Positions 1,693-15,517 of a stretch of 58,508 bases of DNA are shown here, piece by piece; within the stretch, counting starts at the first letter, position 1; the number at the start of each line of letters is the position of its first letter. The translations under genes and the position numbers were made by a program. This DNA comes from a bacterium (GTDB lineage Bacteria; Patescibacteriota; Dojkabacteria; JAKAPS01; JAJZLI01): positions 1-58,508 of the forward strand of contig JAJYFR010000006.1 of the NCBI GenBank assembly GCA_021785355.1. Reading direction: 5' to 3'. The notes below the pieces were generated by a model. That model had not been told where the DNA came from. It saw only the letters and a program-made list of their open reading frames with translations, and did not search any database.

Positions 1693-2159
1693 ATTTCTGA
1701 TACATATAAAGGTAAAACTTTCAAAGGATCATCAAAAATTTTTCTCTCTATTCTATCTAAAACTAAATCTAAAAATTTATCATAATTAATAGAATCTCTT
1801 GCCTCTCCTTTTTCAATTTTATAACCTTTCTCATCTTTTAAATAAACTTTACCTCTACCTGCATTAATAATTAATTTTTTTCCTTCTTTTTCTAAAACTT
1901 CAAATCCACTTATAGCAATTAATGGGATCTTTGAAGCATAGCAAAAACCTTTAATATATGAGAGTCCCACCTTTGTTCTTGTAAAAGAACCTGGGCCTTT
2001 ATTTATAGCTATATATTGAATATCTTTATGAGAAGAAAAGATATTATCTAATAAAGAAAAAAGATTTTTATCTTCAAATTCAAAACTCTCAATTTTTTTA
2101 TTTTCAGCTATAAAAACTTTTAAAACTTCAGTTGTACTATCTATAATTAGTATCTTCAT
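1689..2159 (-). CDS. tsaB: t6A biosynthesis protein TsaB
   Basis: ILIIDS start, GPGSFT motif; lies between tsaE and tsaD. Confidence 0.88.
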   Translation of the reverse strand: MKILIIDSTTEVLKVFIAENKKIESFEFEDKNLFSLLDNIFSSHKDIQYIAINKGPGSFTRTKVGLSYIKGFCYASKIPLIAISGFEVLEKEGKKLIINAGRGKVYLKDEKGYKIEKGEARDSINYDKFLDLVLDRIERKIFDDPLKVLPLYVSEI

Positions 2160-2578
2160 CTTTCTATATTAATATATCTTACTCCATTTTTTATCATAAA
2201 ATTGATTTTTATAATATTAAAACCATTTAGTATATCCAAAAATTTATCTGCCCATTCTATTATAACAAGACCTTCCCCCAGTACATCAAAAAAATCTATA
2301 TTTACAAGATCTTCCTTACTATCCATTCTATACCAATCAAAATGATAAACTGGACCTTTTAAAGATTCATAATCTGATCTGAGTACAAATGTAGGAGAAG
2401 TAACATTATCTAAAACCCCTAATTCTTCCAATAAAAATTTAGTGAAGGTTGTTTTTCCAGCACCCAGATCTCCTATCAGACAAATTATTTCATTACCTTT
2501 TAAAGTTTTTGAAAATTCACTGGCGATTTTCTTTGTATCTTTAAGATTATCTATCTTTATCATTCTAATAAAATTCAA
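2156..2578 (-). CDS. tsaE: t6A biosynthesis ATPase TsaE (likely start ATG at 2563)
   Basis: GDLGAGKTTF, VTSPTF, YHFDWYR, IIEWA motifs. Confidence 0.96.
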   Translation of the reverse strand: MNFIRMIKIDNLKDTKKIASEFSKTLKGNEIICLIGDLGAGKTTFTKFLLEELGVLDNVTSPTFVLRSDYESLKGPVYHFDWYRMDSKEDLVNIDFFDVLGEGLVIIEWADKFLDILNGFNIIKINFMIKNGVRYINIER

Positions 2579-2777
2579 TTGACTACATTATAGAATATAT
2601 CCTTAATTTTTTATAATTTTGTTTTTTGATAATATTTAAAACTGTAAAAAATAGATAAGATAACAATTAATACCAGAGATATTATATCCCTCTAACTGAT
2701 CACCATGTTCTGACATCCGAATATTACAATATTAACAAAAATATTTTATTAATTATATAACGATACTCCTATATAAA

Positions 2778-3956
2778 TTATCTTTGTTCTAAAAAATTTT
2801 CTAACTCAAAAATATTTTTTATAACGACCTTTTCTTTTATATTATAATTATCAAACAATTCTTTTTGTTTTCCTTCTATATCTCTTCCATATTTTACTTC
2901 TATTAGAATTTTATTTCGTATAATAAAATCTATTTCATTCCTATTTATATACAGATATTTAGGATCTTCCATTTTGAGTTTTAGATAGACATAATTTTCA
3001 AATAAACTACCAATATCTCTAACTCCAGTGGAAAAAGTTCTTATTCCTATATCTGATGCATATATTTTTTTTGCAGCCTTTATAGTTTCATTTGTTTTTC
3101 CAAACCTAGAAACAGTATATATTAAATATGAGTCTTCAAACATTTTTAAATATCTATTTGATGTATCTGGAGATATACCCAAAATACGTGCAATTTTATT
3201 TATACTTACAACTTTTCCAGATCTTTCCATTAAAAGTGTAAAATAATTTTGTACTGTACTTATATCTTTTATATCATATTGAGCCACAATATCTTTACGA
3301 AGAATATCATCAACAACTTCTTTTAAATAAGCCACATCATTATGCAGAACATATTCAGGAATTCCTCCAATATTTAAATAGTCTTCAAAATATTTTTGTT
3401 TTAATAAATTATCTTCGGGAAGAATTGTAATATTCTTAAATTGCAAATATTCTTCAAAATCAAGAGGTAGTATCTCTACTAACTTATACCTTCCTGTTAA
3501 ATATGGTTTTTTACTTCTCAGTAATGATGCACTAGAACTAGATGCTACAATCTTTACATATCCAGTATCATATAAATTTTTTAGTTGTATTTCAAAATCA
3601 TCTTTAAAGGTTACTTCATCTAAAAAAACATATATTTGATTTCTGAAAGGTAATTTTTGTATTTTTCTATATTCTTCTATAATTTCTAAAATATTTAAAC
3701 TATTTAGATGATAATCATCTAAACTTATATAAAATATATTTTTACAATTTACCTTTTTTTCATCAATAAGATATTGTATTAATATCTTCATTAATGTTGT
3801 TTTACCTATTCTTCGTAGTCCTGTTAAAAAAAGAATATCATGAATTTCAATATCAATTTTTAATGAATTTAAAATATGATCTCTTAAAATGATTTCACTT
3901 GAAATTGAATATGTTTCACTCCACCAAGGGTTATATCTATAAAATATATTTTCCAT
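2778..3956 (-). CDS. AAA-family ATPase (AAA_14 + DUF4143 type), intact
   Basis: YNPWW, GLRRIGKTT, FLDEV, SSSASLL, LTGR, GGIPE, KKIYASDIG, FENYV, EIDF...IEVK. Confidence 0.92.
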   Translation of the reverse strand: MENIFYRYNPWWSETYSISSEIILRDHILNSLKIDIEIHDILFLTGLRRIGKTTLMKILIQYLIDEKKVNCKNIFYISLDDYHLNSLNILEIIEEYRKIQKLPFRNQIYVFLDEVTFKDDFEIQLKNLYDTGYVKIVASSSSASLLRSKKPYLTGRYKLVEILPLDFEEYLQFKNITILPEDNLLKQKYFEDYLNIGGIPEYVLHNDVAYLKEVVDDILRKDIVAQYDIKDISTVQNYFTLLMERSGKVVSINKIARILGISPDTSNRYLKMFEDSYLIYTVSRFGKTNETIKAAKKIYASDIGIRTFSTGVRDIGSLFENYVYLKLKMEDPKYLYINRNEIDFIIRNKILIEVKYGRDIEGKQKELFDNYNIKEKVVIKNIFELENFLEQR

Positions 3957-4003
3957 TATTTTTATATATTATATGACATTATACTACTATATCGTATAGT
4001 ATG

Positions 4004-4040
4004 TCAATATTCTATACGATGGCATCGTATAGAATATTGA
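4004..4040. promoter_or_regulatory. Perfect palindrome upstream of the AAA ATPase (putative operator)
   Basis: TCAATATTCTATACGATG-G-CATCGTATAGAATATTGA, 18-bp arms. Confidence 0.6.
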
Positions 4041-4048
4041 ATGGATCA

Positions 4049-4087
4049 GGAATTTCAAATACTACACTTTACTCAACAATAAAACGT
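4049..4087 (-). pseudogene. Relic of a RelB/DinJ-like antitoxin paralog
   Basis: 39-bp diverged copy of 4632-4670, which lies inside the antitoxin 4505-4786. Confidence 0.6.
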
Positions 4088-4200
4088 CTTTAGCCATTCC
4101 ATTACTTTCTCAATACTTCCTCTCATCCGTTTATGCTCTCTAGTAAACACAAATCTGGGACCTCTTTTTCTGCTTTTATCTAATTTCTTCATCTCTATTC
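4082..4200 (-). pseudogene. IS5-family transposase fragment (inverted copy of about 4985-5103)
   Basis: Reverse complement aligns with few mismatches to the transposase remnant at 4985-5103. Confidence 0.8.
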
Positions 4201-4241
4201 TCAATCTTGATGGTTTGACAACAATAGCTATATTTAATTTC

Positions 4242-4508
4242 TTAACCATAAAGTTGGCTATGCGTACCTATTATATCAAAGATTACTTCATTTTCTCTTT
4301 GTAGATAAAGTACTCGTATATCGCCTGTTATATCAATACTACGATAATCCTTATATTTACCTTTTAATGCATGATTGCGAAATACAGGACCAAGAGGATT
4401 TTTACTAAATATATTTATTCTTTCTTGTATTTTTTTACGTAATTCTGGATTTAATCTCTTTGCATACTTAATAAAATGTTTAGAGTATGATATCTGCATA
4501 ATAATCAA
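4242..4508 (-). CDS. RelE/YafQ/StbE-family mRNA interferase toxin
   Basis: ISYSKHFIK...RNHALKGKYKDYRSIDITGDIRVLY...DIIGTHSQLYG. Confidence 0.92.
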   Translation of the reverse strand: MIIMQISYSKHFIKYAKRLNPELRKKIQERINIFSKNPLGPVFRNHALKGKYKDYRSIDITGDIRVLYLQRENEVIFDIIGTHSQLYG

Positions 4509-4786
4509 TTTAGTTCATCAGAGAGAAAATCTAAAGATTTTTTTATATCATCAAATTTATAATAGTCCTCTGATTCTATTTGTTTTTTTGAAATAGATAT
4601 TTGTCTTGCTGTTTTAGCATTAGGAACTTCTGGAATTTCAAATACCACGCTTTGTTCTGCAATAAAACGTTTTAATTCATTATTTAAAACTGAACTAACA
4701 CTAATACCCAGTCTCTTAGCAGTTATTGATGCTAACTTCTTAATTTCAGGATTTGTTTTAAGATTTATAACTGCATACTCACTCAT
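4505..4786 (-). CDS. RelB/DinJ-like antitoxin
   Basis: RHH-like N-terminus, EVPNAKT motif; overlaps the toxin start. Confidence 0.88.
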   Translation of the reverse strand: MSEYAVINLKTNPEIKKLASITAKRLGISVSSVLNNELKRFIAEQSVVFEIPEVPNAKTARQISISKKQIESEDYYKFDDIKKSLDFLSDELN

Positions 4787-4828
4787 ACCAAAAGTATATA
4801 CTTTTGGTATGTATTTGTCAAATATATA

Positions 4829-5213
4829 GAAGATGTTCAGAGTTTTGCTTGATATTGCAAAAGAGTTTTAAAATGGGGCAGAATATAAACATTATCATAA
4901 ACTGCCCTATGAGCTTATATGCAGATAAAGGGTATAAGAAGTATGAAAGGAGGAGAGAGTTAAAGAAAAGGAAAAGGCATGCAAGAATAGAGATGAAGAA
5001 ATTAGATAAAAACAGGAAAAGAGGCCCTAAATTTATCTTTACTAGTGAGCATAAACGAATGAGAGGAAGTATTGAGAAAGTAATGGCATGGCTAAAGACG
5101 TTTATGATTGTCAGACTAAGTAGAACACGTATAAAGGCATTGCTAAGTGGGATGTTCTTCTTTTGCCTTAGCTACACTACTTTTACTAGATTAAAAAAAC
5201 TTTGAACATCTTC
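4829..5213 (+). mobile_element. Internally deleted (non-autonomous) IS5-family element
   Basis: Terminal IRs GAAGATGTTCAGAGTTTT / AAAACTTTGAACATCTTC, flanking ATA direct repeat; retains only the C-terminal DDE part (YADKGY...R..IEKVMAWLK). Confidence 0.8.
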
Positions 5214-5372
5214 ATAACATGATTTCTAAAAGTAAGAATTCAGACCTCTATGAGTAGTATTAAATAGAAAAATTAAAAACTGAAATAAATATATTCTTAA
5301 TGATAACTAAATATTTTAAATTTTAATTTCATGGTTATTATTGAATCGGAATAAACTGACTCAAATGACTAT

Positions 5373-5596
5373 ATTTCATCTAAGTTAACCAAAGAATATA
5401 TATTAATCATAGGGGTGTACATTCTTCATAGCTCTTATAACATCTTTTGATTTAGATTCTTCACAAACTATTTTTCTATTTTTTCTTCTTCTACTTGCTC
5501 ATATTCACCAACTTTATCAATACATGAGGTTGCATCACTCACAATATCAAAATGGGATTCTGGAACAAAAACTAATATCTTATATATCTGTTCCAT
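5373..5596 (-). pseudogene. Degenerate YqfO/NIF3-like PII-fold small protein
   Basis: MEQIYKILVFVPESHFDIVSDA...EQVEEEKIE [frameshift] IVCEESKSKDVIRAMKNVHPYD. Confidence 0.55.
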
Positions 5597-5704
5597 TTTT
5601 CCTCATTATAAAACAATTCTTTTTGCTTAAAAATACCGACCATATGAGTTTTAGATGTTTAACAAATTCTCATACTACAAAACAAATGTGGGTGTCTCAT
5701 TACT

Positions 5705-5731
5705 TGACCTTAAGTTGCCTAAGATCGAACC
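5705..5731 (-). repeat. att-like repeat of the tRNA-Glu array (site E4)
   Basis: Minus strand GGTTC-N15-AAGGTCA; the 7-mer equals the tRNA-Glu 3' end. Confidence 0.75.
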
Positions 5732-5813
5732 ACTTTTGGTTTGGATTACAAAAATCATAAATAGCACTATATAATTTTACATATATAATCAATGGGTTCA
5801 ATTTAACTATTTA

Positions 5814-6254
5814 CTATTCCATTTTAAAATCTAAAATATATTTAACAGACGTTATTTTATTTTTTACATTATTAAACAATTTTTTATCTGCTGTAATGAA
5901 ATCATATTTCAAAAATTGTGAAAGGGTGACATAGGAGGCATCATAAAAAGATAAATCGTATTTTATTGATATGTCTAATATATCTAAATAGATTTCTTTT
6001 AAATCATAAAAAATTATTCCATAGTTATTAAAGAGATCTAAAGACTCTTTAGCTAAATTGATATCCAGTTTCTTTAATCTCACTGCTTTGGAAAATACAT
6101 TTCCAATCTCATAATTGAGTATTGCAGGGGAATGTAAATTGATTTGTCCTATATCATATAAATGTTTTAATTTTAGTGCAATATCAATATGTTCTTCTTT
6201 GGGGAATTGTAAATACCATTTAACAATAATTGAATTATCTAAAATTAAATTCAT
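5814..6254 (-). CDS. VapC/PIN-domain toxin
   Basis: LILDNSIIVKW, YEIGN, LSFYDASYV, FITADKKL. Confidence 0.92.
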   Translation of the reverse strand: MNLILDNSIIVKWYLQFPKEEHIDIALKLKHLYDIGQINLHSPAILNYEIGNVFSKAVRLKKLDINLAKESLDLFNNYGIIFYDLKEIYLDILDISIKYDLSFYDASYVTLSQFLKYDFITADKKLFNNVKNKITSVKYILDFKME

Positions 6255-6499
6255 CTCAAATCCTTTTTACTTTCTACAACAATATCAGAGAAATCTTTGA
6301 TTTTTAAGTTTTCTCTAATTTTATCTACTTTTGTGCCTATTATTAATCTTTTGCTATTATCATTTATATCTTGCATTCCTCTAAGAATCAACATATTTAT
6401 TACTTTTTGTAAAGATATTTTTTGGTTATACGCAATATCCCGTGCTTGTTTTATTAATACAGTATTTATTCTAATTGTTGTTCTTTCTGTTTTATCCAT
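6251..6499 (-). CDS. Putative VapB-type RHH antitoxin
   Basis: ERTTIRI RHH start; overlaps the PIN toxin. Confidence 0.8.
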   Translation of the reverse strand: MDKTERTTIRINTVLIKQARDIAYNQKISLQKVINMLILRGMQDINDNSKRLIIGTKVDKIRENLKIKDFSDIVVESKKDLR

Positions 6500-6621
6500 A
6501 TTATTATATTAGCATCAGAGTGACATGATGTCAAGATGTATGTTTCAGACATTTCAAACAGCACTTATATCCAAGAGTATCAATACATTCGGGATGTTTC
6601 AAGTGGGGATGCCTTGTTAAT

Positions 6622-6649
6622 TGGGCTTAAGTTGCCTCAGAATAGAACC
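6622..6649 (-). repeat. att-like repeat of the tRNA-Glu array (site E3, degenerate)
   Basis: GGTTC-N16-AAGCCCA; flanked by CAATACATTCGGGATGTTTC, also found next to the tRNA. Confidence 0.7.
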
Positions 6650-6732
6650 TACTTTTGATTTGGGTTAATAAAAGTATAGGAGCTATTTGCACCTAATTAT
6701 TAGGTTAAATATCTTATAATGGCTCTAGTACG

Positions 6733-7158
6733 TCAGCTATTTTCTTTTATTTCTGTAATAGAGAGAGGTAAACAATAATGATCTGTAAACCTTCCAGCTT
6801 GTGTATCAAATTCCTTACCTTTTTGTTTAAGTTCACTACTTCCTGTAGCAATCACTTTAATTTTAAATTCATCATATAGAATTTTAAGTACAACAGTAGC
6901 CTGAGGATGATTCTGTACTTCATCAATAAGAATAATCTTGTGTGTAGCAACAATTTTCTCTAATAAGGATCTATCTGGAACAAATTTTTCATAATCTGAT
7001 GAAAAATCAAAATTAAAAATAGGAACACCAAGTTTTTCAGAAATTTGTTTTAACAACGTTGTTTTCCCAGAACGTCTTGGCCCCCAAATATAGAATGTTT
7101 TATAATCTTTTCCTTGTAAATAGATTTCTATTTCATTCTCAATCAATCTTTTTAACAT
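6733..7158 (-). pseudogene. Truncated AAA_14 ATPase (N-terminal domain only)
   Basis: GPRRSGKTT, IDEVQ, ATGSS, AGR; ends at 141 aa without the C-terminal domain. Confidence 0.8.
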
Positions 7159-7291
7159 AATATTATTAGATCATATTACTATTAAAATGTAAGCTATCAC
7201 TTTGCAAATTAATATTAATATGTAAAGTACAATTAAGATATATCTTAAACTAATAGCTTAACAGTCTAATTTAGTAAAAAATATCCTATGG

Positions 7292-7354
7292 TGACCTTGG
7301 CATGCCTCAGGCAGAACCGCTTTTAGTCTGGATTGTGAAATTAGTGAAAGTATA
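7292..7354 (-). repeat. att-like repeat of the tRNA-Glu array (site E2)
   Basis: 63 bp, one mismatch to 8253-8315; begins with TGACCTTGGC, the complement of the tRNA-Glu 3' end. Confidence 0.9.
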
Positions 7355-7390
7355 CTGAAAAGTCTATTAACAATAATAGAATAATAATTA

Positions 7391-7666
7391 TTAATAAACT
7401 TGATTATGAGTACCTATATCAATAAAAATGAAAATTATATTCTTTTCCTCTTCAAAATATATAACCCTACAATCACCAGCTATAGAGAATACTCTATATT
7501 TCTTCATTTTACCTTCAAGCTGATGATCTCTCAAAACTGGATTAGATTTATCTTCTATAAATAATTCTAATCTTTCTTTATATCTTTTTCTTAAAATATT
7601 ATTATTTTCAATCCTTTTCTTATAATGTTTAACAAATTTCCTATCTAACCTTATTTCTTTATCCAT
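7391..7666 (-). CDS. YafQ/RelE-family mRNA interferase toxin
   Basis: KFVKHYKK...LRDHQLEGKMKKYRVFSIAGDCRVIY...DIGTHNQVY. Confidence 0.92.
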   Translation of the reverse strand: MDKEIRLDRKFVKHYKKRIENNNILRKRYKERLELFIEDKSNPVLRDHQLEGKMKKYRVFSIAGDCRVIYFEEEKNIIFIFIDIGTHNQVY

Positions 7667-7675
7667 TTTGAAATC

Positions 7676-7993
7676 TTAATCATCTTTAACTTGATCTACA
7701 AGTTTATCTAGTTCCTCTGCAGAATGAATTGTATATGCATTACCTCTCTTTATAGCCTCTTTAGTTTCTTTTAGCCTTTTGTCTAAAAATTGTTCATATT
7801 CTTCACTAATATGCTCAACTGTATCCTCAACCATAAAAGAAGTTTTAATCCTACCTTCAGAAAAACTCATTAAAAAAACTCTAACAACTTCTTGTATAGA
7901 ACTATATCCGTAATCTTCAGCAACTTTCTCTGCCTTCTTTTTTAAAGACATTTTCATAGGAATTTGTATTTTTGTATAATCTGTAGTACTCAT
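7676..7993 (-). CDS. RelB-like antitoxin
   Basis: TKIQIPM...LKKKAEKVAEDYGYSSIQEVVRVFL; immediately upstream of the toxin. Confidence 0.82.
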   Translation of the reverse strand: MSTTDYTKIQIPMKMSLKKKAEKVAEDYGYSSIQEVVRVFLMSFSEGRIKTSFMVEDTVEHISEEYEQFLDKRLKETKEAIKRGNAYTIHSAEELDKLVDQVKDD

Positions 7994-8081
7994 GACTTTT
8001 TTATTATTAATGATATTATTATACTCTTTTAATACGAAGCATACAAGGCTGTCTATAGTACCTATACATTACCAATCTCAT

Positions 8082-8168
8082 ATACAGTATTTATTCTAAT
8101 TGTTGTTCTTTCTGTTTTATCCATATTATTATATTAGCATCAGAGTGACATGATGTTAGATGTATGTT
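8082..8168 (-). repeat. Duplicate of the antitoxin 5' end and promoter (6457-6544)
   Basis: 75 bp identical (6457-6531 vs 8082-8156); similarity continues toward the att-like site. Confidence 0.9.
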
Positions 8169-8252
8169 ACTAAATCAAGCATTTCAATCCGCATTTTTAG
8201 CCTATTATATCAATACATTCGGGATATTTCTGTAGTGGGGTGTCGCATCACT

Positions 8253-8315
8253 TGACCTTGGCGTGCCTCAGGCAGAACCGCTTTTAGTCTGGATTGTGAA
8301 ATTAGTGAAAGTATA
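8253..8315 (-). repeat. att-like repeat of the tRNA-Glu array (site E1)
   Basis: TGACCTTGGCG core shared with tRNA-Glu; left flank 8211-8252 similar to 9115-9156. Confidence 0.9.
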
Positions 8316-8414
8316 TAAGCTTTAAATAACTATTAATGTAGCAATAAAAATCTACTTTATGGTACTTGCCGTCAAACAGTTGTAATATTGACAGCAAAGT
8401 GTTAGTATGTTTGT

Positions 8415-8666
8415 ATGGATGAAGAAGTAAAAACAACAATTAGATTACCTAGATATTTGATTAAAGAGTATAAAAACTTTGCAAAGAATACACATACTAG
8501 TATGAATAGTTCTATTGAGACAGCCTTGAAGTATTTCTTATCTAAAGAGATAACTGTACAAATAAGTGTACTCAATAACAATATTAAAAAAATTAAAATT
8601 CCAACTTTTAGTATGGGTAATATAAAAAGAATAGACAGAAAGAGTATTTATGAAGATATTGTTTGA
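8415..8666 (+). CDS. Putative RHH antitoxin (VapB-like)
   Basis: VKTTIRLP start, IDRKSIYED end; overlaps the PIN gene. Confidence 0.82.
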   Translation: MDEEVKTTIRLPRYLIKEYKNFAKNTHTSMNSSIETALKYFLSKEITVQISVLNNNIKKIKIPTFSMGNIKRIDRKSIYEDIV

Positions 8667-9075
8667 TACAAATATATTAGTTTATGCACATAACGCAGAT
8701 TCCCCATTTAATCAAAAAGCATTAGAGTTATATAACACAACGGAAAATATATGCACCACCCAGCAAAATCTTTTAGAGTTCTACTCTGTGATTACCAATG
8801 ATAAAAGAGTAGAGAAACCTGTGACTGATATGAAAGCACAGTCTTTATTAAAATTTTACTCTGATTCGCAAAAATTTAATATCATATCTCCTAATATAAA
8901 TACTATAAAAATATTAAATGAATTAGCCACTCAGTATAGATTTAAGGGTGTTGAAATTTTTGACATATATATTGTTGCTACTATGATTTCTAATGATATT
9001 TCAATAATATATACTGCAGATACAAAAATCTTTAAGAAATTTCAATCAATAACAGTACTAAACCCATTTATCTGA
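8650..9075 (+). CDS. VapC/PIN-domain toxin
   Basis: ILFDTNILVYA, LLEFYSVIT, IFDIYIVATM, IYTADTKIF. Confidence 0.92.
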   Translation: MKILFDTNILVYAHNADSPFNQKALELYNTTENICTTQQNLLEFYSVITNDKRVEKPVTDMKAQSLLKFYSDSQKFNIISPNINTIKILNELATQYRFKGVEIFDIYIVATMISNDISIIYTADTKIFKKFQSITVLNPFI

Positions 9076-9156
9076 ATATAAAGTATCTGTCATATGTAAT
9101 CTACATAGGCATTTCAATACATTCGGGATGTTTCTGTGGTGGGGTGTCGCGTTAAT

Positions 9157-9230
9157 TGACCTTGGCGGGATTTGAACCCGCGATTTTCAGGATGAGAACC
9201 TGGTGTCCTAGACCACTAGACGACAAGGCC
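9157..9230 (-). tRNA. tRNA-Glu(CTC)
   Basis: GGCCTTG...CAAGGTC acceptor stem, D-loop TAGTGGTCTAGGAC, anticodon loop TTCTCAT, T-arm GGTTCAAATCC; no encoded CCA. Confidence 0.95.
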
Positions 9231-9296
9231 ATAACAATAAAGAATTATATCATAAAATAAATTTACTTTTGTTATTTTTTTTAGTAACATAAACTC

Positions 9297-10064
9297 ATGA
9301 ATAATTCTTTGAAAGATTGGATTTTTCCAACCAAGAAAAATAACTTTAAATCACCTTTACTTAAAAATAAATCACTTACTGTTTACCTTATTTTCTTAAT
9401 TTTTATAAATATAATGTTACCATATTTCATATCATCAGGTAATATATCTTCTCTATCTTTATATAATACTATTAATAAGGACAGAAATTCTGCATCTTTA
9501 GCAAATCTTTCATTTAGTAGATCTCTTTCCTATTCAGCTTCAGAAATCATAGGAGATATATCAAAATATCAATATTTATCTTCAATAAATCCTTTAACAA
9601 ATTATTCTTATTACCATTTTATTAATACTAATAAATTTAGTAATGTGAATGAGATAATTTTAAAAAATTATATATCTCTAAATTCAGCTAATTCAAATAT
9701 ATTGAATCTTTATAAAAATGAAATTCTTAACTCAAGAATAAATGATATAGGTATAGCTGTTAAAAATATCAACTTTTATGGAAATACACAACAGATAATA
9801 ATAGTACTTACTGCAAAAGGAAATAATACTTCATCTCAACCAGCCTTAAATATATCTTCTAACCTAGGACTTATAGATTACACTATAATAACCTATACAG
9901 ATATGTTTATATTGATATTTTTAATATTCTTGATACTCTCTGACGTATTATTTTCTTATTATTACAATAATTTTAAAAATAAAAGTATTCCATATATGAA
10001 TTTAATACTTTCTTTTATAACCATGATAGTCGTATTAATATTAATATTGGGGGTAATATTATGA
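9297..10064 (+). CDS. Membrane protein with a degenerate CAP/SCP-like domain
   Basis: WIFPTKKNNFK leader, TM helix, INKDR...LANLS...EILNSRINDIGIAV, C-terminal TMs. Confidence 0.6.
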   Translation: MNNSLKDWIFPTKKNNFKSPLLKNKSLTVYLIFLIFINIMLPYFISSGNISSLSLYNTINKDRNSASLANLSFSRSLSYSASEIIGDISKYQYLSSINPLTNYSYYHFINTNKFSNVNEIILKNYISLNSANSNILNLYKNEILNSRINDIGIAVKNINFYGNTQQIIIVLTAKGNNTSSQPALNISSNLGLIDYTIITYTDMFILIFLIFLILSDVLFSYYYNNFKNKSIPYMNLILSFITMIVVLILILGVIL

Positions 10065-10876
10065 AAAATTTAATAAAATATAATATTGAAATTTTAAGCT
10101 TCTTATTCTTTATAATTATCCAAATACTTATAATATCACTCTATCTAAGCTCACTAACATTTATCCTTATATATATATTTCTAGCTAATTTAGTAATTCT
10201 TTTATCTTTAATAGATGGAACAAAAAAATTTAAAATTTATGTAAAAGATATAGATATAAAAAAAACAGATAAAACTATATATTTTTATAATCAAATAATT
10301 ATACCTCTATCTTTATTTATATCTACAGAGATATTCTTAATAATAAATAGATTCAACATCACTATATCTGAAATTATTATGCTTATATCTTTAGTATTGT
10401 TTTATACTTCTCTAAGATATATTGAATCTTATTTTGAAGTATTCGAATTTAGTGAGAAAGCTCACTATACTATAAATACTGTAAAATTATTTATATTTTT
10501 CCTTTCTATATATACTCTATTTGAAATTTCTACAATAATAAATATGTCTCTTATAATAGAAATTATTTTTGTTTTTTTAATATCTTTTTCATTAATTCTC
10601 ATGATGATGCAGAGAAATAAGAAATATAATATAAAATATATTGCTTATTCATTTTTATTTTCTCTTATAATTATATTTATATCTACACTGAGTTTATTAT
10701 ATCTTAAGAATGCACTTTTAACTGCATTCTTACTATCTTTGATATTCTATATTTTTGAAAATATTGTTCATCATAAAATACATAAAAACCTTAGCAATGA
10801 GATAATAATAGAGTATATACTTATAGCACTTATTATGTTTTTAATTGCAAGAGGTATATTTCTAATTTATGTATAA
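10061..10876 (+). CDS. Multi-pass membrane protein
   Basis: Many hydrophobic segments; overlaps both neighbours in an operon. Confidence 0.7.
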   Translation: MKNLIKYNIEILSFLFFIIIQILIISLYLSSLTFILIYIFLANLVILLSLIDGTKKFKIYVKDIDIKKTDKTIYFYNQIIIPLSLFISTEIFLIINRFNITISEIIMLISLVLFYTSLRYIESYFEVFEFSEKAHYTINTVKLFIFFLSIYTLFEISTIINMSLIIEIIFVFLISFSLILMMMQRNKKYNIKYIAYSFLFSLIIIFISTLSLLYLKNALLTAFLLSLIFYIFENIVHHKIHKNLSNEIIIEYILIALIMFLIARGIFLIYV

Positions 10877-11171
10877 AATAAAAGCATTAAAACTAACTAA
10901 TTCTAGAGATAAAGCTTTAGGAAAAATAAAATACAGAAAAGAGAATATTTTTTTTCAAACTAGATTTGGAATTCATACATTTGGAATAAAAGAGCCAATA
11001 GATATTTTTGTATTGGACAATAAGTTAAATGTTGTAAAAATAAAAAAAGAATTGAAGCCTCAAAGGTTCTTTTTTTGGAATATAAAATATAATAATATAT
11101 TGGAGATAAATAGTGATATAAAAGAGAATTTAAAAATTGGAGATACTATACACTTAATCCCTACTGACTGA
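10869..11171 (+). CDS. DUF192-family protein
   Basis: GIHTFGIKEPIDIFVLD...ILEI...LKIGD. Confidence 0.8.
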   Translation: MYKIKALKLTNSRDKALGKIKYRKENIFFQTRFGIHTFGIKEPIDIFVLDNKLNVVKIKKELKPQRFFFWNIKYNNILEINSDIKENLKIGDTIHLIPTD

Positions 11172-11247
11172 ATTAGTGTTAATTAGGTCAATCCATTGAC
11201 TGAATTCGTGCGAATTCGGCTAGACAAAATATGTATATAATGACGGT

Positions 11248-11397
11248 ATGATAAACAGAAAATTACAAAAAATAATAATTGAAAAACTTCGTAATTATGA
11301 TAAAAGTATATTGCTATATGGAACAAGACAAGTAGGTAAAACCACCTTAGTAAAAAATATTATCAGTGAATTAGGATATAAAACTCTTTCTATAAAC
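11248..11397 (+). pseudogene. 5' fragment of an AAA_14 ATPase
   Basis: MINRKL...YGTRQVGKTTLV; homology stops at a hairpin element. Confidence 0.8.
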
Positions 11398-11451
11398 TTC
11401 CCACGACCTCACGGTCGGAGTTTTAAGTTCGGAGTCTATAAAGATATTTTT
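11328..11451 (+). repeat. 124-bp target-site duplication, left copy
   Basis: Identical to 13060-13183. Confidence 0.95.
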
Positions 11452-13059
11452 CCTGACTTCCCCAATCAATCAAGGTAGAGATTTGTGATATTGTATTAGA
11501 GCCACAAAATGATAGAAAAATGTTAAAATGGCATACTAATGTATCATCATGTGGAAGATTAGAACTACAAGAACAAATTCTGGGAATATTGCTGTACAAG
11601 TTGTTGAGAATTCTTCTCATAAGGTTAATGTGATAAAGCATATTGGTACAGGTAGAAATGAACAAGAAGTTGAAGATCTTAAGATGCTTGGATATGAATA
11701 TATACAAAAACACAATGTTGATTCAGGACAGATTTCTTTTCTTGATGAGAAAAAGAGTAGTTTAGTATCAATTGATAATTTAAATCTCATTCATACTAAT
11801 CATGCTTTTGCACATGAATATCTATCTCATATATATGAGATTTACGGATTTAATTCTCTAGAAAAGAAACTGCTGCAAGATTTAGTGATTGTAAGAATAC
11901 TTGAACCTGTATCTAAAACAGAGTCAATAGACCTCATAGAAGAGTACTTTAACATTCAATATTCTAAAGGATCTCTTTATCGTAATTTACTCGCGATCTC
12001 TTCAATAAAAGATCAGATTGAAGAGATTGCCGTAGATTATGCAAAGAGAAACCTTAATTTTGATTTCTCTTTGGTATTCTACGATGTCACAAATCTATAC
12101 TTTGAATCTTTTAAATCTGATGAATTTAGAAAGCCTGGTTTCAACAAGGATGGGAAATCTCAACAACCTCAAGTTGCAATAGGATTGGTTGTAAACTCTG
12201 ATGGGTATCCGATATCAATAGAGATCTTTGAAGGTAACAAGTTTGAAGGACATACTTTCATACCTGTAATATTAGCTTTAAAGGAGAAATACAATATTAA
12301 TACTCTCACAGTAGTAGCTGATGCTGCTATGCTATCTTACGATAATATGAAAGCTTTAGAAGAGAATGGACTATCCTTCATAGTAGGTGCAAGGCTTTCT
12401 AAGGTTGACAGTAAGGTATTAGAATCAATAGCAGCAGAACTTAACAGGGAAGAAGGTAAATATATATCAACAGATACAAAGTATGGAACACTAGTTACTG
12501 ATTACTCACGCAAAAGAGCACAGAAAGATAAATCAGATAGGAATAAGCAGATTAGAAAAGCTCAAGCACACATACAGTATCCATCAAAAAATAGAAGACC
12601 TAGATTTGTTAAACAAACAAGTAAAACTGCGCTAGAGATAAATACTGAATTAATAGAAGCAGATGAGCTTAAAGAGGGTATCAAAGGATATTACACGAAT
12701 CTTGTAGATATTTCTCCTCAATTAATAGTTGCAAGATATCATGATTTATGGCATGTAGAGAAATCATTTAGGATTGCAAAAGGTGATCTTAAGGCAAGGC
12801 CAATATACCATAGGAAAAAAGATATGATACTCTCTCATATATTAATTGTTTTCATAGGATTATGTTTATCAAAGTATCTAGAAGTTAATACAGGATTATC
12901 CATAAAGGTCATAAGGAAAAGTATTATGAGGATAGTTGATGTAACAATGCAAGACTCTTTAACTCAACAGTCTTTTACTAAAAGAATGACTATTCCCAAC
13001 TCAGATATATACGCTACTTTATTAAAACTTCTCTAGGCATACTAATTGGGGAAGTCAGG
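11452..13059 (+). mobile_element. IS1634-family insertion sequence (1608 bp)
   Basis: 15-bp terminal IRs CCTGACTTCCCCAAT / ATTGGGGAAGTCAGG; long flanking direct repeat. Confidence 0.95.
11549..13036 (+). CDS. IS1634-family DDE transposase
   Basis: FYDVTNLYFES, GFNKDGK, VVADAAM, YHDLWHVEKSFRIAK, ARPIYH. Confidence 0.96.
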   Translation: MWKIRTTRTNSGNIAVQVVENSSHKVNVIKHIGTGRNEQEVEDLKMLGYEYIQKHNVDSGQISFLDEKKSSLVSIDNLNLIHTNHAFAHEYLSHIYEIYGFNSLEKKLLQDLVIVRILEPVSKTESIDLIEEYFNIQYSKGSLYRNLLAISSIKDQIEEIAVDYAKRNLNFDFSLVFYDVTNLYFESFKSDEFRKPGFNKDGKSQQPQVAIGLVVNSDGYPISIEIFEGNKFEGHTFIPVILALKEKYNINTLTVVADAAMLSYDNMKALEENGLSFIVGARLSKVDSKVLESIAAELNREEGKYISTDTKYGTLVTDYSRKRAQKDKSDRNKQIRKAQAHIQYPSKNRRPRFVKQTSKTALEINTELIEADELKEGIKGYYTNLVDISPQLIVARYHDLWHVEKSFRIAKGDLKARPIYHRKKDMILSHILIVFIGLCLSKYLEVNTGLSIKVIRKSIMRIVDVTMQDSLTQQSFTKRMTIPNSDIYATLLKLL

Positions 13060-13183
13060 ACAAGTAGGTAAAACCACCTTAGTAAAAAATATTATCAGTG
13101 AATTAGGATATAAAACTCTTTCTATAAACTTCCCACGACCTCACGGTCGGAGTTTTAAGTTCGGAGTCTATAAAGATATTTTT
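13060..13183 (+). repeat. 124-bp target-site duplication, right copy
   Basis: Identical to 11328-11451. Confidence 0.95.
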
Positions 13184-13543
13184 GATATATCAGAAATAAA
13201 AATACATTACAAATAAGAAATCTTTTAATATATTCTAGATGTTTTCGTTTTTATTACCTCGTTGTTTTATCATTATATTACAGGTTTATTTGGTACTTCC
13301 AAAAAACAAGTAAATTCAATTAAAAGAATATTCAATAAAATAAGAAATCAATAGATTTAATTTCAGGGTTATTATTCAATTAGAAAAGACTGTGTTTTTA
13401 ATATCACTTTTGAGCTTTTCTCTTCTTCAATAAGGAAATCTCTTAAAGCTTCAGTTTCCTCTAGTTTCATCTCACTATTCAAATCACAGTCCTCATAGTT
13501 TAACTTATGAGAATCTAATACATAAAATTTTCTCTTTAAATTG

Positions 13544-13993
13544 TTAAGAGAAAGTATATATTTTATGCCACATTGTTTTGTCTGATGATAAAGGTTCGTA
13601 GGTGATTTTTCCTGTAAATGTCAAAGTAATATCTCCTACAGTATCTGTAGAAAGCAATTTTTTAAAAAAAACCCCAATTGCGATAACTTTAATATTTTTT
13701 ATTTGATCCACTATAATTTTTAAGGCATCCCCAATATGATTTATTTTTTGAGCTTCATCAATCACTATAAGATCATAACCTGATGCATAAGGAATAATCA
13801 AATTGAAGTTTCTTGAACTTAAAATGTTTTGTATTTCAATATTATCACCAGAATCTAATTTATATCTAAGTTTTGTAGAGCTAAGAAAATTTTCTACAAG
13901 AGTAGTTTTTCCAACTTGCCTAGGTCCATAAAGTATTAATGCTTTTTCATTTTCTAGCAAAGAGTCTATATTAGAATATATTCTGTTTATCAT
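13544..13993 (-). pseudogene. Truncated AAA_14 ATPase fused to unrelated sequence
   Basis: YGPRQVGKTT, VIDEAQ; homology lost after KVIA. Confidence 0.8.
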
Positions 13994-14015
13994 ACCGTCA
14001 TTATATTAACATTAC

Positions 14016-14074
14016 CCTCTGTATTTTGATAAATACGGTGATTACTATCTACTGTATTTATCAAAATACAGAGG
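14016..14074. promoter_or_regulatory. 21-bp perfect inverted repeat upstream of the AAA ATPase fragment
   Basis: CCTCTGTATTTTGATAAATAC (14016-14036) / GTATTTATCAAAATACAGAGG (14054-14074). Confidence 0.6.
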
Positions 14075-14257
14075 CTTTTATTGTAAAAGTATTTATAAGA
14101 TTAATTTAGTTATTTTACTATAAAATCTATATAATTTTCCTTGTTAATTAAAGAAAATTCTGAATCAGGATAAGTATCCATCTAATATTGAGAAGAAGTT
14201 TTTATTATTTCATCAACCTATTTTATTTTATATACATTTAATTTATTTTTGAAATCT

Positions 14258-15517
14258 TTAAAATACAGCTGCAAAAAAGATATTTTGAGAGTTATAACTC
14301 AAACCTCCTCCCATATTTTGACCAAATGTTAGATTTGGACCAAACCAAGGATCTTGCATTGTTCCACTAGCACCTACTGCACCCGTCATTGTAACAAAAT
14401 GTGTACCAAAAGAATTATCTGGAACATAAAAACCTATGACTACAGGAGAGGAAGGAGATGCATATGCATCAATTTGAGAAATTGAAGGATTCCAAATTAC
14501 ATCTTGTACTCCAGGAAGACTATAAAACTGAGCTCCATTATTCCAATATTGTAGAGCTGTTTGAGAAAGAGGTGTAAAATTACTATTTCCTATTAAATTT
14601 TCAGCCATTATTATAGCAATTAAAGAACAGCCTGCACTCGCATATGTATCACCAGAAGAATCTAGTACATAATTACCCCATTGAGAACATTCTTGAGAAA
14701 AATATGCACCTTGTTGACAAGGAACATTCAAAGGGATAGTACCTGGGACTCCTTCTGAAAGCTCTAATCTTGATAATTTTTGCAATATAGACTGTTGTTG
14801 TTGATAGAGAGAATTATTTGAACTCTGAATACTATTACTCTGGTTAATAAGATTTGCTTGTTCATTTTTTAAAGTATTTTGATCTGCTATCAAAGAATTT
14901 TGAGTAGACACTTCTTGTGTTAATAAGCTTTGTGCATTCTGTTGTTTTAGTGCAACAGACGCTTTATTTTTATTTAAAGCATTTACAGTGACATTTAATT
15001 TTTGAACTAGTGTATTTTCATGCGTCATTGTAGATTTAAAATAGACTACTGATACCATTGCATTAGTTATATTTGAATTTCCCATAAACAAAGTTACTGG
15101 AGGTATATATGTTTGTTCATATCCAGATCTAGCATTAGAATCTATTTGCACTTTTATAGCATCTATTTTGACTTGTTCTTGTGCTATTTGAATATTTAAT
15201 TGATTAATTTGGGAATTTAGTGCAGCTACTTGAGCTCTTTCATTATTAACTAAAACTTCTTTCTGAAAAATTAATTGTTGATAAGCATTAATTTGAGGTT
15301 GAAGGTTCGAACTTTCTGTATTAAATGTATTTATTTTCTGTTGATTTTGATTTATCAAATTCTGAATATCATTATATTGTTGTTGTAATGAACTTATAGA
15401 TGAAGTTGCGTTAACTACACCCGGCTTATAAAGCATGAAAGGATATACAGCTATAAGAAACGAAAGTACAGAAAATATTGAGATCCTTATCTTTTTATTA
15501 GAAAATATCTTTTTCAT
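14258..15517 (-). CDS. Secreted coiled-coil protein with a C-terminal peptidase C39-like domain (probable FtsEX-associated hydrolase)
   Basis: Signal/anchor, Q/N-rich coiled coil, YFSQ...W...AGCSLIA, HFV, DPW; downstream of ftsX. Confidence 0.75.
   Translation of the reverse strand: MKKIFSNKKIRISIFSVLSFLIAVYPFMLYKPGVVNATSSISSLQQQYNDIQNLINQNQQKINTFNTESSNLQPQINAYQQLIFQKEVLVNNERAQVAALNSQINQLNIQIAQEQVKIDAIKVQIDSNARSGYEQTYIPPVTLFMGNSNITNAMVSVVYFKSTMTHENTLVQKLNVTVNALNKNKASVALKQQNAQSLLTQEVSTQNSLIADQNTLKNEQANLINQSNSIQSSNNSLYQQQQSILQKLSRLELSEGVPGTIPLNVPCQQGAYFSQECSQWGNYVLDSSGDTYASAGCSLIAIIMAENLIGNSNFTPLSQTALQYWNNGAQFYSLPGVQDVIWNPSISQIDAYASPSSPVVIGFYVPDNSFGTHFVTMTGAVGASGTMQDPWFGPNLTFGQNMGGGLSYNSQNIFFAAVF

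Follow-up and report, generated by a model that had tools for sequence, protein, structure and literature searches.

A tandem array of small recombinase-less cassettes at a tRNA-Glu gene of a Dojkabacteria genome, probably mobilised in trans

The stretch of DNA analysed here, called the window, is a contig of 58,508 nucleotides (nt) from a bacterium of the Dojkabacteria (Patescibacteriota). It is contig C8 of an 883-kb genome, G000, that is assembled in 13 contigs with 26-28% G+C. Next to its tRNA-Glu(CTC) gene lie four cassettes bounded by five related sites, three of them holding toxin-antitoxin (TA) pairs and one a broken defence ATPase. The region is best explained as a tandem array of recombinase-less mini-elements at tRNA-Glu(CTC) that are mobilised in trans, most likely by a tRNA-targeting serine recombinase, a reading whose probability is put at roughly two in three. 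The cargo consists of TA pairs and candidate anti-phage genes, and on this reading the array is a small defence and addiction island passed between species.

The tRNA gene was located on the minus strand by ARAGORN (9156-9231) and by Rfam (9157-9230), and four further repeat copies are found on its 3' side, with core starts at 8253, 7292, 6622 and 5705. A first-pass annotation, made from the sequence alone, had reported these four cores together with 9157, and the spacings that it gave (917, 670, 961 and 904) were reproduced exactly. Its claim that two of the sites match at 62 of 63 positions corresponds to the 98% identity observed over 63 nt between 7292-7354 and 8253-8315. In the same way, the arm that it described as recurrent, CAATACATTCGGGAT, was recovered at 6578-6600, 8208-8230 and 9114-9134, that is, before 6622, before 8253 and before the tRNA. 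When the genome was searched with a profile of four full units, 10 sites were detected in its 883 kb (E 6e-35 to 1.5e-6). They are confined to three loci, and the next-best match had an E of 1.1. The repeat array is confirmed as real and not due to chance. In the Rfam scan the tRNA was the sole match, the repeat unit belonging to no Rfam family.

A full unit measures about 115-130 nt and is composed of a left arm (at most about 75 nt), the core TTGACC and a right arm of about 45-60 nt. The core is the reverse complement of the last bases of tRNA-Glu, at the tRNA 3' end, and all units within one array share the same orientation. At the tRNA-proximal junction, the left arm of the first cassette (9111-9155, plus strand) abuts the tRNA, whose terminal TTGACC on the plus strand is the insertion point and is followed after a spacer of 12 nt by the motif GAACC. 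The internal junctions have both arms. The first of them (8196-8329, plus strand; profile E 6e-35) has its core TTGACC at 8252-8257 and a spacer of 17 nt before the GAACC box, and another full unit (6566-6698, plus strand; E 1.4e-33) has a mutated core, TTGGGC, at 6621-6626 and a spacer of 18 nt. Junctions 5705 and 7292 keep just the final 0-17 nt of the left arm. The distal one (5685-5761, plus strand) is made of the last 17 nt or so of a left arm, the core TTGACC at 5704-5709 and a right arm with a spacer of 17 nt. The other (7292-7357, plus strand) is reduced to a core GTGACC at 7291-7296 and a right arm, and its left flank, CCTATGG, resembles the native flank of an empty site in the relative G002.

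Units were searched for in 61 genomes, namely G000 and 60 relatives. Besides G000, unit sites were found in G001 of the same genus (six), in G005 of another genus of the same family (two) and in G007 (three), while a single 36-nt match in G039 looks like chance. In G002, which belongs to the same genus and is 96% complete, both tRNA-Glu genes are without any unit and the neighbours of the array are in place, tsaD/tsaB/tsaE to the left and 9297-11171 to the right. G005 carries the cassette called vapBC-1 alone (window 5704-6606), directly against the tRNA. The array of G007 has two cassettes and that of G001 has five, spread over 13 kb at the other tRNA-Glu gene, tRNA-Glu(TTC). The five comprise a Fic cassette, a YafQ-type TA pair, an AAA_14/DUF4143 cassette, a 4.7-kb cassette with a histidine phosphatase, an insertion sequence (IS) and an ABC-F gene, and a 4.4-kb cassette (locus L023 10445-14817) with NAD-synthase-like, CN-hydrolase, ornithine/diaminopimelate-decarboxylase-like and ATP-grasp genes. 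This last, four-enzyme cassette indicates that cassettes are not limited to defence or TA cargo.

The first-pass annotation had made presence/absence variation at the repeat boundaries the test of its reading, and such variation was found: the site is empty in G002, vapBC stands alone in G005 and other combinations occur in G001 and G007. Relatives thus differ in cassette content instead of sharing one identical block, and the same cassettes occupy different positions and orders in different genomes. Between G000 and G001, identity reaches 98.8% over 1459 nt for the AAA_14/DUF4143 cassette and 94.4% over 1364 nt for the Fic cassette. The YafQ-type TA cassette gives values of 90% and 87%. The vapBC-1 cassettes of the window and of G005 are 89% identical, whereas the flanks there are at 70-73%. 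Altogether, flanking core genes show 70-75% identity as against 87-99% for common cassettes. Since the cassettes are far more alike than their flanks, they have moved between species, genera and loci.

Two other loci of G000 hold units. At tRNA-Glu(TTC), on contig C1, the same layout was observed with three cassettes, which carry a full AAA_14/DUF4143 gene, a Fic gene and a split AAA_14/DUF4143 gene. On contig C11, a SpoU methylase gene and serS are separated by a 2.6-kb insert in which two units bracket a YafQ-type TA cassette; no tRNA is present there. The gap between these two genes is 28 nt in G002 and 13 nt in G005. PADLOC assigned the AAA_14/DUF4143 proteins to the candidate defence family PDC-S01 and the Fic protein to SoFic. 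The cassette family uses both tRNA-Glu genes and one tRNA-less site, and analogous arrays exist at tRNA-Asn.

These tRNA-Asn(GTT) arrays of small cassettes, some of them TA-like pairs, are located on contig C13 of G000 (L078 1400-5200) and on contig C9 of G001 (L076 7980-11802). Their units, four in G000 and a 79-nt repeat (96%) in G001, begin with the tRNA-Asn end and have a GAACC box at +5. In the C11 insert (locus L004 5200-7800), the Glu-type YafQ-like TA cassette is joined to an Asn-type cassette that is a broken TA-like pair, presumably BrnT/BrnA-like, with an intact copy in G001 (C9). The junction reads Glu-type left arm, TTGAC and Asn-type right arm, joined at a shared TGAC. The use of this TGAC as a crossover marker was dropped because distances to the GAACC box are not equivalent in the Glu and Asn types.

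In each cassette, a cargo with its own promoter is enclosed by a right arm at one end and a left arm at the other, and the cassette is joined to its neighbours at the core TTGACC. When one cassette was aligned pairwise in two contexts, identity began just past the core and stopped at the next core. The tRNA of G001 retains its own TTGACCC whereas the cassettes of this genome read TTGACCT, which places the exchange point within or to the left of TTGACC. In a circular cassette, left arm, core and right arm would form one attP-like site, and this site could recombine with the tRNA end, used as an attB-like site, or with an existing junction. As insertion would take place at the tRNA end or at a junction, cassettes would pile up and the tRNA would stay intact. 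The mover would most probably be a large serine recombinase of the tRNA-targeting kind of this bacterial class, supplied in trans by another element that may be absent from G000 or may have been lost by it. Successive site-specific insertions, as put forward in the first-pass annotation, are supported by these data; site specificity is deduced from the anatomy of the sites, and a recombinase for them was not found in the searches reported below.

The kind of enzyme is suggested by the right arm, which repeats the design of the tRNA, with its terminal bases and then a T-loop-like GAACC box, the box being placed further out. Counted from the core end, the box lies at 12 nt in tRNA-Glu genes (7/7) and at 17 nt in cassette arms (13/15), the remaining arms having it at 18 nt (2/15). 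Counted from the tRNA 3' end, it is found at 17 nt in tRNA-Gln and at 22 nt in the arm at the distal end of a serine-recombinase island inserted there. The tRNA-Asn units give 17 nt in the tRNA and 22 nt in the arm for G001, and 18 nt and 23 nt for G000. In a genome-wide scan of the 20 kb that follow the 3' end of each tRNA with a GAACC box, a shift of +5/+6 gave 9 matches, 7 of them within these arrays, as compared with 0-2 for each of seven other shifts. Overall, the right arms resemble the 3' half of the tRNA only modestly, with p<0.05 reached in 10 of 22 alignments. The outward shift of the GAACC box by 5 nt, rarely 6, in right arms relative to the tRNA is the new observation of this work.

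In large serine integrases, a motif for the zinc-ribbon domain is present in both attP and attB and lies 5 bp nearer the centre in attB, according to Rutherford et al. 2013 (PMC3783163). The position of the GAACC box at +5 matches this published shift, and the right arm therefore resembles an attP-type half-site and the tRNA end an attB-type one. By its sequence, the tRNA-Glu end of the window looks like an attB-type right half-site.

Several points weigh against a serine recombinase acting in trans. No mirror image of the GAACC box was found in the left 45 nt of any of the 22 sites, and the serine-recombinase island is likewise without a mirror; published serine integrase sites are described as quasi-symmetric in PMC3783163, whereas here the right half alone shows the motif. 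According to the same paper, hybrid sites are not normally accepted as partners of attP by serine integrases, so that stacking would need a permissive enzyme or left-arm ends passing as attB halves. In total, G000 has two Xer-like tyrosine recombinases and one serine recombinase, the latter at tRNA-Gln and not at tRNA-Glu, and the serine recombinases of G001 are also at tRNA-Gln genes. A recombinase gene is absent from every array seen in the four genomes. The missing left arm at site 7292 and the mutated core at site 6622 belong here as well, and neither an excised circle nor an empty-site variant of this strain was seen in assembled contigs, which cannot show rare forms. Finally, some arms are mosaic. 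The left arms of the Fic cassette clearly differ between G000 and G001 despite a nearly identical body (94-99%), and a near-identical strain in the public sequencing run X4 differs almost only in the right arm 5712-5784 of junction 5705. Homologous exchange between units therefore also acts.

To this mosaicism can be added the left arm of vapBC-1, which is more diverged than the cassette body. Homologous recombination between units thus contributes to the array and parts of the latter are decayed; with some junctions in this state, part of the array is probably fixed. Taken to its limit, such exchange could dispense with any dedicated recombinase, the cassettes being acquired by DNA uptake and homologous recombination with the junction units and the tRNA gene as homology anchors. 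Besides the mosaic arms, an exact 75-nt copy common to two cassettes of one array and the failure to find a cognate recombinase speak in its favour. However, it leaves unexplained the tRNA's own last bases at the start of each arm as well as the GAACC box at +5/+6 in 15/15 arms and at tRNA-Gln and tRNA-Asn. Moreover, a first insertion into an empty site such as that of G002 has homology on one side only, and arms that are 60-90% identical over about 60-130 nt are a poor substrate. Movement by homologous recombination without a recombinase of its own is considered unlikely.

The preferred reading, a serine recombinase supplied in trans, draws on an enzyme family of this bacterial class. The large serine recombinase of G000 (579 amino acids (aa), contig C1 27973-29712) has a frame that runs 81 nt into tRNA-Gln(TTG) from its 3' end, and it closes a 15.3-kb island at this gene (C1 14328-29712, L075), the site being empty in G002. 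Also encoded on this island are a methylase of Eco57I type (1101 aa) and an SNF2/PLD protein (1160 aa), together with a DUF3644 gene that is split. At the far junction of the island lies a pseudo-tRNA-Gln arm in which the GAACC box is shifted outward by 5 nt. Homologues of the enzyme were found in 18 of the 221 genomes of the class. At 16 of 19 loci (L079-L097), the gene overlaps a convergent tRNA gene, entering it from the 3' end by 19-133 nt. The tRNAs entered are of nine specificities (Gln, Glu(TTC), Leu, Tyr, Pro, Lys, Ile, Asp and Arg). Judged from these positions, the homologues are a family of putative tRNA-end-targeting integrases. One homologue, in a distant family (G022), is linked to tRNA-Glu, and the family genomes besides G000 gave no homologue at E<=1e-10.

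A tyrosine recombinase might be the mover instead, either one of the two conserved Xer-like enzymes, as for Xer-dependent elements and dif modules, or a phage integrase or integrative and conjugative element (ICE) integrase of the classical tRNA-targeting kind. Xer-like recombinases were found in 9/9 family genomes, usually two in each, array or no array, and they are the sole recombinases common to all array-bearing genomes. For tyrosine integrases, tandem accretion at the ends of tRNA genes is well documented (PMC5704250). Around the core lies an imperfect inverted repeat of the form 12-6-12 (8/12, by eye), which is the shape of tyrosine core sites; once the choice of axis is allowed for, this symmetry is estimated not to be significant. 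The same two enzymes are however present in the unit-free genomes G002, G003, G004 and G006, and one of the genes is fixed between tRNA-Ile and tRNA-Met at 8/8 family loci, like a housekeeping gene. We know of no counterpart of the +5 spacing rule in tyrosine systems. Altogether, a tyrosine mover is held to be quite improbable.

The two tyrosine recombinases of G000 score best as XerC/XerD, below the cut-offs. A fuzzy search for a dif-like site returned 13 AT-rich matches, regarded as noise, and no candidate. The G000 copy of the fixed Xer-like gene is at C3 79060-79920 (L002), between tRNA-Ile(TAT) and two tRNA-Met genes, with orthologues at L066-L072, and 7 nt separate its stop codon from the 3' end of tRNA-Ile.

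An element that combines these arms with a recombinase was looked for in genome, metagenome and viral contigs, and no such parent was found. Arm patterns had no match in two scans of metagenome contigs and none in two of viral contigs. The scan of genome contigs gave 12 stretches, from three known relatives and from unrelated phyla, the latter in about the number estimated for chance. A derivation of the left arm from the 3' end of a recombinase gene was also considered. One frame is open across some units, yet the indels are not multiples of three, and left arms compared by eye with the C-termini of serine recombinases showed no likeness; the idea was dropped.

The cassettes could also be fossils of larger integrase-bearing islands that decayed in place and are immobile in any lineage. 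The absent left arm at 7292, the mutated core at 6622, the truncated AAA_14 gene and further decayed material at 2700-5684 are what such a history would leave. On the contrary, no recombinase domain and no remnant of an integrase, relaxase or transfer gene was detected in any cassette examined in the four genomes. In addition, the same cassettes of 0.7-1.5 kb are found elsewhere, at other tRNA genes and in other genera, at 87-99% identity where core genes have 70-75%, and immobile fossils are therefore very improbable.

The region has a superficial likeness to an integron-type cassette array with attC sites and IntI, in that single-operon cassettes, many with a TA pair, are separated by direct repeats of about 115-130 nt. 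The units, however, do not fold: four of them folded as single-stranded DNA on both strands (eight folds) gave z of -1.79 to +0.76 relative to shuffles. The tyrosine recombinases of G000 reach 56-59 bits on integron-integrase models as against a cut-off of 265, and the cassettes face both ways and carry their own promoters. In parallel, an assembly artefact is contradicted by the same architecture in three other assemblies and by independent contigs that cross the junctions. Hardly any weight is given to either an integron or an artefact.

Twelve public runs from five studies hold part of the region, and four of them were compared, all as assembled contigs. Contigs from independent runs cross junctions 7292 (X3, X7), 8253 (X5) and 9157 (X3) without difference, and none of the contigs listed spans 6622 with at least 31 nt on both sides. 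Run X7 has a layout like that of G005, with vapBC directly at the tRNA. The strain of run X4 shows 2 differences over 2000-4083, and there position 4083 is joined to 5127, so that 4084-5126, a block with a relB/yafQ pair and IS fragments, is absent; its missing cover at 6755-7071 is no evidence of absence. The joints 6606 to 8240 (X5) and 8239 to 6626 (X7) were rejected as deletions, being contigs of the paralogous units on C1 and C11. A joint from 4522 to 10838 has just 21 nt on one side.

Several known systems share features with these arrays. Cis-mobilizable elements (CIMEs) are defined by Guedon et al. 2017 (PMC5704250) as flanked by attL/attR-type sites and without integration and transfer genes; here, each cassette is bounded by units and none holds a recombinase domain. 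In the ICESt1/ICESt3 model of tandem accretion given there, att sites are likewise kept, mobility genes are lacking, elements stack at the 3' end of a target gene and the enzyme comes from another element. CIMEs are however presented there as decayed ICEs or integrative and mobilizable elements with tyrosine integrases, whereas the cassettes are of uniform size (0.7-1.5 kb, some 4.4-4.7 kb), with no trace of mobility genes, no ICE and a site anatomy of serine type.

Composite islands of the staphylococcal cassette chromosome (SCC) and pseudo-SCC elements without ccr, as outlined in bioRxiv 10.1101/336396 and PMC13739063 and as generally understood, are elements of large serine recombinases in tandem at the 3' end of one gene, with recombinase-less members beside recombinase-bearing ones. 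In SCC, the target is rlmH and not a tRNA, sizes are in the tens of kb and ccr is present in many arrays, unlike the arrays described here, which are without recombinase. The tycheposons of Prochlorococcus, described in bioRxiv 10.1101/2020.12.28.424599, also occur in streamlined genomes, insert at tRNA genes and push one another inward with partial tRNA copies between them. They are described as larger, with their own tyrosine recombinase and replication genes, neither of which the cassettes have. Integron cassettes and integrase-less attC clusters (PMC13141974) and the dif modules of Acinetobacter (PMC6449649), also as generally understood, are likewise small recombinase-less modules, often TA pairs, that are bounded by sites and depend on an enzyme encoded elsewhere. 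Integrons differ by their attC hairpins and IntI, neither of which was found here, and dif modules by alternating 28-bp XerC/XerD sites, where the present sites are chromosomal direct repeats at a tRNA end. Defence hotspots without detectable mobile elements are on record in E. coli (PMC10121019). In the literature on such arrays, on mobile elements of Patescibacteria and the candidate phyla radiation and on DUF4143, no description of arrays of this kind in Patescibacteria was found.

Bacteria whose genomes are smaller than 1 Mb are commonly assumed to leave mobile DNA little space. G000 nonetheless keeps at least four cassette sites (two at tRNA-Glu, one at tRNA-Asn and one without a tRNA) and near-identical cassettes are exchanged with other species and genera. 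A wider proposal, tentative and with the odds against it, is that tiny-genome Patescibacteria practise an open, integron-like gene capture for which large serine recombinases that target tRNAs provide the basis. The attP half-site would be a portable pseudo-tRNA arm, made of the last bases of the tRNA and a T-loop box at +5 bp, and any small module bearing it could be inserted at the tRNA end by an enzyme encoded elsewhere. One design would serve for Glu, Asn and Gln, and defence and TA cassettes would circulate across genera. Should the main reading, mobilisation in trans, hold, it would explain how these organisms, with neither plasmids nor obvious phages involved, come to exchange defence and TA genes. 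It would also provide a simple sequence rule, the pseudo-tRNA arm with its T-loop box at +5, to find cassettes and predict the class of recombinase, and would direct attention to attP/attB pairs, natural and very short, of serine recombinases acting at tRNA ends.

The cargo of the window was examined cassette by cassette. Cassette 1, nearest to the tRNA (8258-9110, plus strand), holds a vapBC-type pair with a small Arc/DUF6364-like antitoxin gene (8415-8666) and a PIN toxin gene (8650-9075). Cassette 4, furthest from the tRNA (5762-6565, minus strand), is vapBC-1, with its PIN toxin gene at 5814-6254 and a small upstream antitoxin gene at 6251-6499. Both PIN toxins are above the cut-off of 23.6 (31.5 and 62 bits), the antitoxins match DUF6364/Arc below the cut-off, and the paired genes overlap at 6251-6254 and 8650-8666. 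With a PIN domain above cut-off and an overlapping small antitoxin gene ahead of it, both pairs are of the type II VapBC kind. Cassette 2 (7358-8195, minus strand) encodes a RelE/YafQ toxin (7391-7666; YafQ_toxin 44.5 bits for a cut-off of 30, RelE_StbE 44 bits for a cut-off of 27.9), preceded by a 105-aa putative antitoxin gene without family match (7676-7993). Cassette 3 (6699-7290, minus strand) carries a 141-aa AAA_14 fragment (6733-7158) that PADLOC places in PDC-S01; its DUF4143 part is missing, full-length relatives having 392-417 aa and a DUF4143 domain. The module content given in the first-pass annotation, vapBC, a truncated AAA ATPase, YafQ and a vapBC on the opposite strand, agrees with these assignments, except that the label relB was based on position only. 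Its description of the elements as TA-only is too narrow for the family, which also carries AAA_14/DUF4143 ATPases, Fic and multi-gene cargo of 4.4-4.7 kb.

Cassettes of the window point both ways, each with its own promoter. The scan gave 32 promoter sites for 26.8 +/- 4.8 expected, and single promoter calls are therefore weak. The vapB-1 gene is preceded by a promoter-like TTGACA-17-TAATAT at 6534-6506, inside the repeated 75 nt. This sequence, the vapB-1 promoter region with the first 14 codons, recurs as an exact copy at 8082-8156 in cassette 2. In this position it faces the relE/yafQ operon, which looks as though this cargo had taken the place of vapBC in a cassette frame already there.

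The segment 2700-5684, which separates tsaE from the array, has no counterpart in G002 or G005 and is probably older, decayed island material. It includes a full AAA_14/DUF4143 gene (2778-3956, minus strand), the 3' end of which is also found in G007 as the remnant of a cassette, and a relB/yafQ pair (4242-4786, minus strand) between inverted IS fragments, with gene fragments after it. At the two ends of the block with this pair (4073-5205), 120 nt from the 3' part of a DDE_Tnp_1 transposase gene are present as two inverted copies that are 92% complementary. On the other side of the tRNA, a 3.1-kb segment (11171-14258) is without counterpart in G002 and G005, where the flanking genes adjoin. 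It contains a DDE_Tnp_1 transposase gene of 495 aa (11549-13036) and two AAA_14 fragments, at 11248-11478 (plus strand) and 13544-13993 (minus strand).

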